This document shows positions 5,275 through 40,250 of a stretch of 64,000 bases of DNA, one piece after another. The notes under the pieces are model-generated. The model ran no database searches. It was not told the origin of the DNA and worked only from the letters and a program-made list of their open reading frames with translations. A program made the position numbers and the translations under genes. Source of the DNA: Candidatus Saccharimonadales bacterium (GTDB taxonomy: Bacteria > Patescibacteriota > Saccharimonadia > Saccharimonadales > JANWIN01); NCBI GenBank assembly GCA_025449905.1, contig JANWIN010000008.1, positions 4,642-68,641 on the forward strand, in the 5' to 3' direction. Numbering within the stretch: the stretch's first letter is position 1; the number at the start of each line of letters is the position of its first letter.

Positions 5275-5751
5275 ATGAACAAGATTGTTCCAGCCATTGA
5301 TAAGGTAGATTTAAGGCGGGGGATTGATCATATTGGTGTTTCGGCTGTTTCAGTGGTGCATGATGGCAAAGGCAAAATCTTGCTTCACAAGCGCGGTAAG
5401 GGCGCACGTGACGAGCGTGGTCACTGGGATGTAATTGGTGGTGCCATTGAGTTTGGGGAGACTATTGAAGAAGCCATTACGCGCGAAATTAAAGAAGAAC
5501 TTTGCACTAAGCCATTAGATATGGTGTTTTTAATAGTATTTGATGCGCATCGCGTCAATCAAGACAAAGATAAAACTCACTGGATAGCCATCTTGTACGC
5601 CGTGAAAGTTGAACCAAAAACAGTTAAAATAGGTGAGCCGCATAAAATGGATGCCATTGGTTGGTTTGGTCTGAAAGATTTGCCAAAACCACCGCATTCA
5701 CAACTCCACAAAGCATTAAAAGTTGCTATGCAGACTAAGATTATAATCTAG
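5275..5751 (+). CDS. NUDIX hydrolase
   Basis: NUDIX box GGAIEFGETIEEAITREIKEELC; 158 aa; inserted between rpsJ and rplC. Confidence 0.85.
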   Translation: MNKIVPAIDKVDLRRGIDHIGVSAVSVVHDGKGKILLHKRGKGARDERGHWDVIGGAIEFGETIEEAITREIKEELCTKPLDMVFLIVFDAHRVNQDKDKTHWIAILYAVKVEPKTVKIGEPHKMDAIGWFGLKDLPKPPHSQLHKALKVAMQTKIII

Positions 5752-20944: not shown

Positions 20945-22078
20945 ATGGTCTTAGACACCCAAACAGCACTGGAATATTACTGGGCGCTAGATTCAATGTC
21001 AGCCGAAGTGTTTGCTTCAAGAATGGATGCTGCCGGCCAATCTCGGCGTTTAGAAGCTATCTATTCTCCTCTTGGCGAAATCGCAATTGATGATACCGTA
21101 GGCATGAGTCGGGATCGAATTGGCGCCATCTTTAGAGGCGAATCCAAAGAAAAGCTAATTGCCTTTGGACCTTGTTCGGATGGAAATGAACAGGATTTAC
21201 CGGTGCAATTAGATGAACTGTTTGATTTCATCGAAAAACTTCAAGAAACTTATCCAGGTGCACTTTTTGCAGTCAGGCTAAACGGCGCCAAACCTCGTAC
21301 CGGCCCCGACTGGACAGGCTCGTACTATAGCCTTAACCCTAACTCCAGAATGCACCTCATTGAACACTATATATCTGCAGCCAACCGAGGCATTCCTGCT
21401 CTTAGTGAAATAACACAAGAATCACAACTTGGCTTATTGGCACCATACCTAAGTGCTGCGTGGCTTGGAGCAAGAGATATGCAATCAACCACTCTGCGAA
21501 CTGCCCTTTCGGCTTATCATTTGCCAGCAGGTGTCAAAAATAGCATAAGCGGCCAGCCAAAGACCGTAGAAGATGCCGTCAGAACTATTAGAAGCAATTC
21601 TAAGGATAGAGGTAATACGGGTGTAGAACTTACTATTGCTGGACATATGGCGGATGTACCGCTGCCAGTTGGGCAAGGCAATAAAGACGTTGCAATTTTT
21701 GCTAGAGGACATGAGCTACGTAAAGGTACTTTAGCCGAGGAGGGACGAGCACTTGCCTTAGAGCATCTAGGTATAATGTGCACATTAGGTGTAGAGTTGG
21801 GTGCGACAGTCATTATTGATGGCTCACATGACGTACCAAAAATGTTTAACTTAGCTACGAGCGAGGGAAAAAAAGACCCTGACCGATTAGTCCCTGTTTT
21901 GCGTGAAATCCATAGAGGAATTGAAGAAGAAAGAGTAGAGAATGCTAGTCAGATTGGGGGTCTGATAGGCGAGGTTGGGCCTGACGTAGGCGACACAGAC
22001 CCAAACTTTATCTTGGACGAGGCGCATAAAGAACAGCTAATGAAAGTCGTTGACGAGTTCCTTAACCTAGAAATATAG
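20945..22078 (+). CDS. divergent class-I DAHP synthase family protein
   Basis: By-eye alignment to AroG-type landmarks: FGPCS, GAKPRTGPDWTG, AAWLGARDMQS, LPAGVKNSISG, VIIDGSHD. ATG 20945 lies 4 nt after the rpsI stop; the ORF-track start 20795 would overlap rpsI. Confidence 0.55.
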   Translation: MVLDTQTALEYYWALDSMSAEVFASRMDAAGQSRRLEAIYSPLGEIAIDDTVGMSRDRIGAIFRGESKEKLIAFGPCSDGNEQDLPVQLDELFDFIEKLQETYPGALFAVRLNGAKPRTGPDWTGSYYSLNPNSRMHLIEHYISAANRGIPALSEITQESQLGLLAPYLSAAWLGARDMQSTTLRTALSAYHLPAGVKNSISGQPKTVEDAVRTIRSNSKDRGNTGVELTIAGHMADVPLPVGQGNKDVAIFARGHELRKGTLAEEGRALALEHLGIMCTLGVELGATVIIDGSHDVPKMFNLATSEGKKDPDRLVPVLREIHRGIEEERVENASQIGGLIGEVGPDVGDTDPNFILDEAHKEQLMKVVDEFLNLEI

Positions 22079-22081
22079 ACG

Positions 22082-22237
22082 TTGACAAAGTTATTATTTG
22101 TAGTATATTAGTTTTTATGTCTAAAATGACAATCAACAATTCATTTTGGTTTACCGACACAACTCGTGGCGGTTTATTCCGTATGTTCTAAGATTGTCTA
22201 AAACCTATCGAAGAAGCCGCCACCAAGGCGGTTTTTT
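22082..22237 (+). promoter_or_regulatory. candidate leader-peptide attenuator upstream of the 72-aa ORF and trpS
   Basis: TTGACA (22082-87), 16-nt spacer, TATATT (22104-09), 7 nt, then a 24-codon ORF 22117-22191 (MSKMTINNSFWFTDTTRGGLFRMF). GTGGCGGTTT (22166-75) can pair with AAGCCGCCAC (22214-23), which overlaps the terminator. Confidence 0.5.
22216..22237 (+). terminator. intrinsic terminator
   Basis: GCCGCC / accaa / GGCGG(T) stem-loop followed by T6. Confidence 0.6.
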
Positions 22238-22274
22238 AATAATTTAAGTAATAATTTAAGAAAGGAATATAACA

Positions 22275-22493
22275 ATGGATAAAGATAAAAGGCCTAGGGG
22301 CATGATGATCATACCCCCTGGAGGAACAGAAGGTCTGATAGAAGACAAAGCAGAAATTGAGCGTTTAGATGCAGGACAATCTCAAAACCAAGATTTAGAA
22401 GTTGGAACGGAGCAAAATATTGGTACTGTCGCAACCAAAGCAGAGGCAGACAGATCTAATTCCCCATATTTCGTAAAACGTGCAGGAATTTAA
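22275..22493 (+). CDS. hypothetical protein (72 aa)
   Basis: ORF with upstream aaggaa RBS-like sequence; polar low-complexity protein; no motif. Confidence 0.3.
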   Translation: MDKDKRPRGMMIIPPGGTEGLIEDKAEIERLDAGQSQNQDLEVGTEQNIGTVATKAEADRSNSPYFVKRAGI

Positions 22494-22508
22494 GATATAA
22501 TTACAACA

Positions 22509-23768
22509 ATGAGTAAACCGGTAATACTTACAGGTCTTAGAGCTAATAACGACCTCCACCTAGGTAATTATTTGGGGGCCTTGCTACCTATGGTTGACAT
22601 GGCTAACAAACAAGCTGGCGAGCATCAAATTAATCTGTTCGTACCTGATTTACACAGCTTTACGACACCAATCGACCATTCTAAGCTTTACCAGCAAAGC
22701 ATTGATAATGTGAAAGTCTTTGTAGCTACCGGACTTCATATCGGACACGAAAATGTACACATATACCGTCAAAGTTTTATTCCAGCCCATTCGGAGCTGG
22801 CTATCATCCTTAATAGCTTTGTGGGCGTTGGTGAAATGGAGAGAATGACACAATACAAAGAAAAGATAGCAAGTTCAGTTGAAAAAGAAAGAGAGTTCGC
22901 TAAACACCTAGAGGAGCTATTCAGAAAAAATATAAATGAAAATAACGAGGTAAATGATGCAGTGGAAAGGATGACACAGTATAAGAAAAGAATTAAAATA
23001 AATGAAAAAAAATACTTAAGCCAACAAAAATATATGCAAAGTCTATCTGACATTGTTTTAGAAACAGAAAAAGGTGACATTTTCAACATTGAAGTCAAAT
23101 CAAAAAAAGATATTGGACCATCGGTAGGCCTTTTTGATTATCCTGTGTTGATGGCGGCTGATATTCTGCTTTATGGCGCCTCATATGTGCCCGTTGGCGA
23201 TGATCAGACTCAGCATCTAGAATTTACCCGCAATATAGCTGAGCGAATGAATAAAAAGTTTGGCGAGCTGTTTGTTGTGCCAAACCCTGTTGCTGAGCAG
23301 CACAAATTCTTTGGAAAAGACCAAGGTTTGCGCATTCGCGACCTTCTAGATCCAAATAAAAAGATGAGCAAATCCGACGACACCGGCAAAGGTGTGATTT
23401 TCTTAAGTGACAAGCCCGAAGAAGCAGCAAAAAAAGTAATGTCAGCTACTACGGATAGCCTTAATAAAATTGCACTGGATTTTGAGAAGCAACCTGGAGT
23501 TAGTAATTTATTGCAAATACATGCCTTGCTTTCTGGCGAAACTCTAGACGCCGTCACTAAACATCACGGTGGGGAAACAAACTACAGCGACCTTAAAAAA
23601 GAGGTGGCAGAACAAGTTAAAGAGTTCTTAAATGACTTCCAGGCAAAACTTTCAGCTGTAAACGAGCACGAAGTTATCAAAAAGCTGGAAGCCAGCGAAG
23701 CTGAAATGAATAGACAAGCCAACGAGACCCTAGCCAAGGTTCAAAAAGCCGTAGGCCTGCGCAAATAA
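22509..23768 (+). CDS. trpS: tryptophan--tRNA ligase with a large internal insertion
   Basis: Class I HIGH-type motif (NDLHLGNYLG), KMSKS (NKKMSKSD), YPVLMAADIL. 419 aa, with a ~80-aa K/E/N-rich insert. Confidence 0.9.
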   Translation: MSKPVILTGLRANNDLHLGNYLGALLPMVDMANKQAGEHQINLFVPDLHSFTTPIDHSKLYQQSIDNVKVFVATGLHIGHENVHIYRQSFIPAHSELAIILNSFVGVGEMERMTQYKEKIASSVEKEREFAKHLEELFRKNINENNEVNDAVERMTQYKKRIKINEKKYLSQQKYMQSLSDIVLETEKGDIFNIEVKSKKDIGPSVGLFDYPVLMAADILLYGASYVPVGDDQTQHLEFTRNIAERMNKKFGELFVVPNPVAEQHKFFGKDQGLRIRDLLDPNKKMSKSDDTGKGVIFLSDKPEEAAKKVMSATTDSLNKIALDFEKQPGVSNLLQIHALLSGETLDAVTKHHGGETNYSDLKKEVAEQVKEFLNDFQAKLSAVNEHEVIKKLEASEAEMNRQANETLAKVQKAVGLRK

Positions 23769-28545: not shown

Positions 28546-28622
28546 AGGGGTGTAGCTCAGTTGGCTAGAGCGACGGTCTCCAAAACCGTAGGTCGGGGGT
28601 TCAAGTCCCTCCACCCCTGCCA
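28546..28622 (+). tRNA. tRNA-Trp (anticodon CCA)
   Basis: Acceptor aggggtg/cacccct; anticodon loop CTCCAAA; CCA encoded. Confidence 0.88.
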
Positions 28623-39909: not shown

Positions 39910-40137
39910 ATGGAAGGTCAAATAAGCGAACCTGTTTCTAGCCAAGAACCAATAGTAGACCCTGAAGTCTATAGGCTACTTGAAATTGGTGAAAAACTTA
40001 AAGCCTTTGGCCTATTAAGTCGAGAGATAAGACTTGAGCTTATACACGGTGCGCCTTGTGGCGAACAATGGAGTGTCAGGCTAATGCGCTGGTACCCGAA
40101 ACCAACGGTTGACGAAACATCTGAATCTAATCTATAA
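39910..40137 (+). CDS. hypothetical protein (75 aa)
   Basis: ATG 39910 preceded by AGGAGG at 4 nt. The longer ORF-track frame (39661) runs through the leuA-family 3' end and the leader region. Confidence 0.45.
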   Translation: MEGQISEPVSSQEPIVDPEVYRLLEIGEKLKAFGLLSREIRLELIHGAPCGEQWSVRLMRWYPKPTVDETSESNL

Positions 40138-40139
40138 TA

Positions 40140-40234
40140 TACTGGTTACCAGAGACAGTGGCGGCGAAAGCTTAATTATGCCACCGAGGTAGAAACAACT
40201 TTTCTATGTCTTTGGTATGCGCCAAAGATTTTTT
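40140..40234 (+). promoter_or_regulatory. rplJ (L10) leader-like structured 5' region with terminator-type hairpin
   Basis: GTGGC...GCCAC helix (40159-40185). TCTTTGG/tatgcg/CCAAAGA plus T6 (40209-40234), 16 nt before the rplJ ATG. L10-leader autoregulation is known in other bacteria. Confidence 0.45.
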
Positions 40235-40250
40235 AATTTTAAGAGGTAAG

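Follow-up and report, generated by a model that had tools for sequence, protein, structure and literature searches.

Introduction

Transcription attenuation through a translated leader is exemplified by trpL of Escherichia coli, in which a short open reading frame (ORF) with the regulatory codon precedes an intrinsic terminator, four RNA segments pair as 1:2, 2:3, and 3:4, and region 1 lies inside the footprint of a ribosome stalled on a tryptophan (Trp) codon. The same traits recur in a unit located at positions 22082-22237 of a 64,000-nucleotide (nt) stretch of DNA from Candidatus Saccharimonadales bacterium (Patescibacteriota; assembly GCA_025449905.1, contig JANWIN010000008.1, positions 4,642 to 68,641 of the forward strand), this whole stretch being referred to below as the window. 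The unit is positioned upstream of trpS, the gene for tryptophanyl-tRNA synthetase (TrpRS), and, judging from its sequence, it is very probably a classical ribosome-mediated (leader-peptide) attenuator responsive to charged tRNA-Trp, with transcriptional read-through into the trpS operon as its output. It differs from trpL in possessing one Trp codon, versus two in tandem, in being probably leaderless, with no Shine-Dalgarno (SD) sequence, and in controlling a synthetase operon, while in E. coli the genes for biosynthesis are controlled.

As to the sensed amino acid matching the regulated synthetase, attenuators of this kind include pheST in the gamma-proteobacteria, with its pheM leader, and those predicted for trpS and leuS in Streptomyces (PMC1262725). 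The unit described here belongs to a different phylum and has no detectable sequence relation to these, and it also differs in that a variable extra cistron precedes trpS and in that trpS keeps a -10-like element of its own. The layout of a leaderless leader ORF followed by anti-antiterminator, antiterminator, and terminator hairpins is known from ilvBNC of Corynebacterium glutamicum, whose three-hairpin attenuator is carried on a leaderless leader-peptide mRNA, but in this actinobacterial system branched-chain amino acids are sensed and biosynthetic genes are controlled, and the model for it has translation initiation blocked by the first hairpin as well (PMC11857589), a role for which the Saccharibacteria unit gives no indication. 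The polycysteine leaderless short ORFs of mycobacteria likewise serve as a sensory first cistron, with stalling on the codons of one amino acid, but they act at the level of translation, a downstream ribosome-binding site being unmasked without a terminator (bioRxiv 10.1101/834739), whereas a canonical terminator/antiterminator pair is present here. Finally, the T-box of the Firmicutes trpS shares with the unit its logic, low charged tRNA-Trp leading to read-through into trpS, as well as its terminator/antiterminator output. Unlike the T-box, the unit has no Stem I, specifier loop, or model match, and it would be a translating ribosome that does the sensing, not direct binding of tRNA.

In the literature searched, no paper on attenuators in Saccharibacteria or in the candidate phyla radiation was found. 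The mechanism is a textbook one, and its occurrence in Saccharibacteria, as read from these sequences, is an extension of the range of a known mechanism. Saccharibacteria are ultra-small bacteria with reduced genomes that live on other bacteria, lack amino acid biosynthesis, and are auxotrophic for Trp, and, to our knowledge, they possess few recognisable regulators. A conserved attenuator suggests that these organisms monitor tRNA-Trp charging and adjust TrpRS and the neighbouring genes, thus providing a concrete handle on how they sense nutrients supplied by the host.

Architecture of the Leader Unit

All of the elements described in this section are on the forward strand. The unit opens with a -35 hexamer TTGACA (22082-22087) and a -10 hexamer TATATT (22104-22109), separated by a 16-nt spacer and together matching 11 of the 12 consensus positions. 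This promoter had been called in the initial annotation of the window, and no other site between 18 and 27 kb resembles a promoter as closely. Among the copies of the unit in other Saccharibacteria (see below), TTGACA is exact in 42 of 88, and TATATT is the commonest -10 hexamer (29 of 88 copies). An ATG located 7 nt after the -10 hexamer opens a mini-ORF of 24 codons plus a stop (MSKMTINNSFWFTDTTRGGLFRMF; 22117-22191) that contains only one UGG, at 22147-22149, the putative stall site. This ORF and its single Trp codon had also been recognised earlier, and the comparison bears them out, with the UGG in frame in 93 of 95 copies. The stop codon (22189-22191) falls inside the 5' strand region of the extended antiterminator. 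Of 88 copies, 55 have exactly 7 nt between the -10 hexamer and the ATG, and 70 have 6-8 nt there, with no SD sequence present. As the ATG follows the -10 hexamer by 7 nt and is not preceded by an SD sequence, the mini-ORF is probably leaderless, the transcript starting at the AUG at 22117 or adjoining it.

A similar layout is seen elsewhere in the window. Many genes that are first in an operon have a TATAAT-like hexamer 6-12 nt before the start codon and no SD sequence, examples being the genes starting at 5275, 25583, 27138, 29406, 34395, 42259, and 47670, while in genes within operons AAGGA or GGAGG is present. Leaderless mRNAs thus appear to be common in this Saccharibacteria genome, and the leader unit adds to the evidence for their being common in the phylum.

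The mini-ORF and the sequence behind it contain four segments that can pair in alternative ways. Region 1, the anti-antiterminator strand (ACCGACAC; 22153-22160), pairs with box 2 (22166-22173) in a 1:2 hairpin of -7.5 kcal/mol. Region 2 (22166-22187, with the core GTGGCGGTTTATTC at 22166-22179) is the 5' strand of the antiterminator, its part at 22166-22173 being shared with the 1:2 hairpin as the 3' strand of the latter. Region 3 (22202-22223, with the core GAAGAAGCCGCCAC at 22210-22223) is the 3' strand of the antiterminator (-20.7 kcal/mol) and overlaps the 5' arm and the loop of the intrinsic terminator (22211-22237; stem 22211-22221/22227-22237, loop ACCAA, a tract of six U; -15.6 kcal/mol). 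The initial annotation had described the antiterminator as a 10-bp helix between GTGGCGGTTT (22166-22175) and AAGCCGCCAC (22214-22223) that includes one G-U pair. These sequences are indeed complementary and, as discussed below, show compensatory changes, but the helix is longer than described, extending to 22187/22202. Likewise, the terminator given as GCCGCC/accaa/GGCGG plus T6 is present, but its stem is longer, measuring 11 bp with the A-U pairs to the U tract counted. The interpretation of the unit as a Trp attenuator, proposed at the same time, is supported by the frame, the covariation, and the linkage to trpS; what had been missed was the probably leaderless start and region 1, the addition of which makes the unit a full three-hairpin attenuator.

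Helices 1:2, 2:3, and 3:4 are mutually exclusive. For the whole leader the predicted folding energy is -34.5 kcal/mol (z = -3.6), a stability equalled by none of 200 shuffled sequences. Structure prediction, which had been proposed as a check, places the unmasked leader RNA of the window in the 1:2 plus terminator state, while masking up to 22160 makes the antiterminator the minimum-energy fold, also when the full-length RNA is considered. The minimum-energy fold of the window further includes an outer helix (22128-22134/22193-22199), but this helix is not conserved, with 29% of its cells paired, equal to controls. Complementarity between the terminator loop ACCAA and UUGGU at the Trp codon was also considered and was dismissed as a coincidence, since the loops vary across the family.

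A Conserved Family Upstream of trpS

To a comparative search upstream of trpS in related genomes, as had been advised in the initial annotation, we applied nhmmer with the window element against the regions upstream of trpS in other Saccharibacteria, and then counted copies with a profile and a covariance model at 49 Saccharibacteria trpS loci (labelled L001-L049). The unit is present in 25 copies at 22 of the 49 loci, with the Trp codon nearly always retained and the pairings kept. Independently of trpS, a scan of metagenome contigs with the pattern TGGTTTACCGAC..GGCGGT..ACCGCC returned 86 matches, about 81 of them with the complete architecture. Every copy has the same layout: -35 and -10 hexamers, an ATG a few nt on, a short ORF with [Y/F]-W-F-T, a GTGGCGGT box, a stop codon, a spacer, and ACCGCCAC..GGCGG with a U tract; in nearly all copies an AAGGAG-like site and the ATG of the next gene follow the terminator. 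With the complete unit recurring in 97 aligned copies, the arrangement is, on this comparative evidence, more than chance. In the window itself, neither an nhmmer profile search for a second copy nor a generic scan for a -10 hexamer, ATG, short ORF, and terminator in succession revealed a further unit.

The family does not correspond to a described RNA family. Searching positions 21500-23000 against Rfam 15 at E up to 10, no match to Trp_leader or any other leader family was obtained, and the only matches were weak, terminator-driven ones to osmY and P9. Across the whole window at the gathering score, no leader, T-box, or small RNA family was detected, save for an L10 leader elsewhere. What has emerged is therefore an RNA family, about 100 members strong and unmatched in Rfam 15, whose three helices covary and which is ready for a covariance model and usable for annotating Saccharibacteria genomes.

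The same comparison bears on the simplest competing explanation, which had been named at the outset as the refuting case, that the hairpin does no more than terminate the upstream DAHP (3-deoxy-D-arabinoheptulosonate 7-phosphate)-synthase-like gene, with the promoter-like site and the mini-ORF being there by chance. The position of the hairpin, 133-159 nt past the stop of that gene (22078), would suit such a role, and no other terminator is found after that gene. However, the same unit follows different genes in other genomes, as at L027 and L084, where it comes directly after rpsI, and in some genomes it precedes the DAHP-synthase-like gene; moreover, conservation across 97 copies extends to the promoter, the frame of the ORF, and the helices. 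We give this explanation next to no weight.

Covariation of the Three Helices

The covariation of the helices was assessed on two alignments, one of 23 sequences, made with MAFFT, and one of 97 copies (A3), which was fitted to the terminator and the 1:2 helices, with the antiterminator left out of the fitting. In the 23-sequence alignment the antiterminator is 88.7% paired, with 5 pairs changed on both sides, and the covariation observed is reached by none of 500 shuffles, with slid controls at 29-64%. On A3, the 14-bp antiterminator (22166-22179/22210-22223) is 84% paired, with 10 covarying pairs, and its extension to 22187/22202 is 74% paired versus 30-49% in slid controls. Two of the antiterminator pairs, 22166/22223 and 22167/22222, covary (GC 59, CG 10, UA 4, AU 1), and this cannot be explained by the terminator, as 22222-22223 are located in the terminator loop.

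The 1:2 helix is supported in the same manner, with 94% of its cells paired and 4 pairs with double changes (slid controls, 18-62%); for example, the pair 22160/22166 is CG in 64 copies, GC in 13, AU in 2, and UA in 1. The terminator core stem is 99% paired across the family. Covariation can be followed through regions 1, 2, and 3 at once, with the combinations CAC/GTG/CAC, CAG/CTG/CAG, and CAA/TTG/CAA present in the alignment. When region 1 is masked across the family, the number of copies folding into the antiterminator rises from 21 to 63 of 95.

Predicted Translation of the Leader and Ribosome Geometry

In 94 of 95 copies the ATG and the UGG are 27, 30, or 33 nt apart. Changes in length by whole codons only are a signature of a translated frame. 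The UGG is the sole nearly invariant codon, being kept in 24 of the 25 copies of the trpS-anchored set, which is free of bias from the UGG-containing search pattern; in this set the preceding codon specifies Y, F, S, or T and the following one mostly F. From region 1 on, copies differ in the frame in which these nucleotides are read, and all three frames occur (RGG; VAV or LAV; WR; in 44, 37, and 14 copies); box 2 and the sequence downstream are thus conserved as RNA and not as peptide. This rules out a conserved functional peptide, an idea that had also been entertained.

The spacing of these elements fits a ribosome stalled at the UGG. Counted downstream from the first base of UGG, the distance to the start of region 1 is 6 nt in 94 of 95 copies and the distance to the start of box 2 is 17-20 nt. 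In 67 of 95 copies the stop codon is found 14-17 nt past the 10-nt box 2. The ribosome footprint extends approximately 12-13 nt downstream when UGG is in the A site. With this reach, a ribosome stalled there would mask region 1, and box 2 would stay accessible.

Two further explanations have to be weighed against the frame and the geometry. One is that antitermination proceeds without translation, through uncharged tRNA-Trp, as in a T-box, or through a Trp-binding protein similar to TRAP, with UGG or UGGC serving as binding sites. There is a superficial likeness in sequence, as UGGUUUACCG and the UGGC of box 2 resemble the UGGN-ACC string of T-boxes, and the variant at L047 reads GGTGGTACCGCG, equal to the T-box consensus; in addition, Firmicutes usually control trpS through a T-box (PMC1262725). 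However, no T-box or other Rfam family is matched at E up to 10 by the window element or by L047, nor is a T-box found at the gathering score at 16 related loci; the approximately 30 nt between the predicted start and the UGG leave no room for a Stem I or a specifier loop; the whole-codon spacing described above points to translation; and the leader has no (G/U)AG repeat array of the kind bound by TRAP. The T-box idea was dismissed on the Rfam results and on the architecture of L047, which has the usual promoter and a leaderless mini-ORF with tandem W-W, and we consider antitermination without translation in either form very unlikely.

The other explanation invokes a nascent-peptide sensor, as in TnaC, in which the string W-F-T-D would sense free tryptophan in the exit tunnel and the ribosome would stall. 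TnaC is 24 amino acids (aa) long. The leader peptide has the same length, and its W-F-T-D string is conserved. Against such a sensor, the T-D that follows W-F is encoded by region 1 (ACC GAC), which is conserved for pairing, and conservation is lost in the later residues, at the C-terminus, and around the stop codon, as copies use different frames there. Downstream there is an intrinsic terminator with a covarying antiterminator and no Rho site, and the logic would be inverted, with free Trp inducing TrpRS. A mechanism of this type is hardly credible for the unit.

Proposed Mechanism

The ribosome-mediated attenuator remains the preferred reading, and it is based on the sequence elements, their conservation, the covariation of the three helices, the frame, the geometry, and the linkage to trpS. 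The traits by which leader-peptide attenuators are recognised are found together here: a short leader ORF with a regulatory codon, an intrinsic terminator before the first structural gene, a covarying and exclusive antiterminator, a region 1 within the footprint of the stalled ribosome, and a target tied to Trp. From these we infer the transcription start, the leaderless translation, the stalling, and the physiological response to tryptophan.

The strong promoter would produce a leaderless mRNA beginning at or near the AUG at 22117, and a ribosome would translate the 24-codon mini-ORF. When Trp-tRNA is scarce, the ribosome would stall with UGG (22147-22149) in the A site, its footprint covering region 1 (22153-22160). 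Region 2 (22166-22187), set free, would then pair with region 3 (22202-22223) as the antiterminator, the 5' arm of the terminator would be sequestered, and RNA polymerase would proceed into the 72-aa ORF, trpS, and the genes that follow. With ample Trp-tRNA, the ribosome would run over the 5' strand of the antiterminator to the stop codon (22189-22191) and leave; after its release, region 1 would pair with region 2 and region 3 with region 4 (22211-22237), and a transcript of approximately 120 nt would end at the U tract, near 22237.

Several observations weigh against this reading. At 27 of the 49 Saccharibacteria trpS loci, no leader unit is present within 4 kb upstream. Only 42 of 95 copies change from the terminator to the antiterminator as their minimum-energy fold when region 1 is masked. 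In many copies the two states are predicted to be near in energy, and by these models the decision must be kinetic. Textbook attenuators possess tandem or multiple regulatory codons, a trait typical of the class while not strictly defining it, and the window leader has no such series; of 95 leaders in the family, 81 have one Trp codon, 12 have two, and 1 has three, a tandem W-W being confined to the L047 variant, and with a single codon in most of them the sensitivity may be low. Finally, no SD sequence is found at trpS of the window, and trpS has a -10-like element of its own, by which part of its expression may bypass the attenuator.

The last element is a TATAAT at 22496-22501, 7 nt before the ATG of trpS, and may be a leaderless promoter proximal to this gene. 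TATAAT, often as GGTATAAT, recurs 7-12 nt before the trpS ATG at nearly all Saccharibacteria loci, with or without an attenuator, and at several loci SD-like GGAG or AAGGA is present between the two. This suggests a -35-less promoter that gives a leaderless or a short-leader mRNA. Expression of trpS is probably the sum of a weak trpS-proximal promoter, providing a basal level, and a strong attenuated promoter, adding inducible read-through.

The Proposed Target and Neighbouring Genes

The local gene order is rpoA-rplQ-rplM-rpsI, the DAHP_synth_1-like gene, the leader unit, the 72-aa ORF, and trpS. Immediately past the terminator there is an SD sequence AAGGA (22262-22266), and it is followed by the 72-aa ORF (22275-22493, forward strand as the SD sequence, the TATAAT, and trpS), the first cistron past the attenuator. 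This orphan ORF belongs to no Pfam family, and in a search of 5.8 billion proteins its only match was itself. It is followed by trpS (22509-23768; Pfam tRNA-synt_1b, E = 3e-50), the close relatives of whose product are all from metagenome-assembled genomes of Saccharibacteria, and a further gene starts 4 nt past the trpS stop. That the ORF and trpS come next, so that the sensed amino acid would match the regulated gene, was part of the initial annotation, and this linkage holds widely: in all 22 of the 22 non-redundant unanchored contigs with at least 2.5 kb downstream, trpS is found downstream on the same strand, at a distance of 204-3433 nt.

This linkage is relevant to the proposal that the unit is an independent small-RNA gene, encoding a trans-acting RNA of approximately 120 nt or a functional 24-aa peptide, with its position before trpS incidental. 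The unit does have a strong promoter and a terminator of its own, its sequence is unusually conserved across a phylum, and there is a precedent in rnTrpL of Sinorhizobium, a terminated attenuator RNA that is reported to act in trans (PMC6614838). However, an incidental position is at odds with the occurrence upstream of trpS on the same strand without exception among these contigs and with the SD sequence and ATG directly behind the unit; the 2:3 pairing that competes with the terminator covaries, which a plain small RNA would not need; and the C-terminal half of the peptide, being read in three frames, is not a conserved peptide. In our estimate this proposal has very little chance of being correct, but a secondary role in trans, beside attenuation, is conceivable.

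At least one other cistron is always present between the terminator and trpS. The kinds observed are a small ORF of 50-150 aa, a DAHP_synth_1-like gene, an amino-acid racemase-like gene, and an unknown gene together with an M20 deacylase. The small-ORF slot, with an ORF of 50-130 aa and a good SD sequence, is found in the window (22275-22493) and at L002, L006, L010, L013, L027, L028, L030, L031, L034, L035, and L044, and the small ORFs that occupy the place between terminator and trpS show no homology to one another. The slot is one of fast turnover, and it may provide translational coupling into trpS. At L020, a further copy of the leader precedes LysE and prephenate dehydratase genes.

The DAHP_synth_1-like gene of the window (20945-22078) starts 4 nt after rpsI. 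It is divergent, scoring 44.8 bits against the Pfam family and far under all NCBIfam cut-offs, and it is upstream of the unit in the window but between the leader and trpS in some other Saccharibacteria. An enzyme of the DAHP-synthase family is unexpected in a phylum that lacks aromatic amino acid biosynthesis.

A broader interpretation would place the unit at the core of a phylum-wide tryptophan-starvation regulon, with the interposed genes forming a Trp-scavenging set fed by compounds derived from the host, and with a possible role in trans for the terminated 120-nt RNA. The proposed set would comprise the divergent DAHP-synthase-like enzyme, the racemase-like protein, the M20 deacylase, and LysE with prephenate dehydratase. 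If such a regulon exists, more than TrpRS would be switched on, and the leader would possibly be one of very few amino-acid sensors in these host-dependent bacteria. We regard this extension as speculative and rather unlikely.

Variant and Serial Leaders

Two variant copies of the family are of note. At L027 (3602-3738), the segment encoding SNYWFTDF is tandemly duplicated, so that both the Trp codon and region 1 occur twice within this leader. At L047 (1229-1381), the variant leader has tandem Trp codons (MNHRIQTATLWWYRA), a stop codon ahead of box 2, and the pairing GTGACGGT/ACCGTCAC, along with the usual promoter and a leaderless mini-ORF that contains the tandem W-W.

Some genomes have two Trp leaders in series in the trpS-proximal gene cluster, each before a different gene, as at L043 (906-1026 and 2205-2327), L029 (1852-1978 and 3142-3270), and L020 (1387-1509 and 3064-3193). 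The genes behind the serial leaders encode a DAHP-like enzyme, an unknown 320-aa protein, a racemase-like protein, or LysE with prephenate dehydratase, and the second copies often have 2-4 Trp codons.

Three other features of the window can be mentioned. The TrpS protein is 419 aa long versus approximately 340-345 aa in most relatives, due to an insertion of approximately 75 aa encoded at 22830-23100, in which the motif ERMTQYK(E/K)(K/R)I is repeated and the G+C content is 0.28 (at 22900-23099). A tRNA-Trp gene (CCA) is located at 28546-28622, approximately 6 kb downstream of the Trp leader, and is clustered with genes for tRNA-Thr and tRNA-Tyr. Upstream of rplJ there is a ribosomal protein L10 leader (40131-40244; Rfam RF00557, 66 bits) of the ordinary, known kind.

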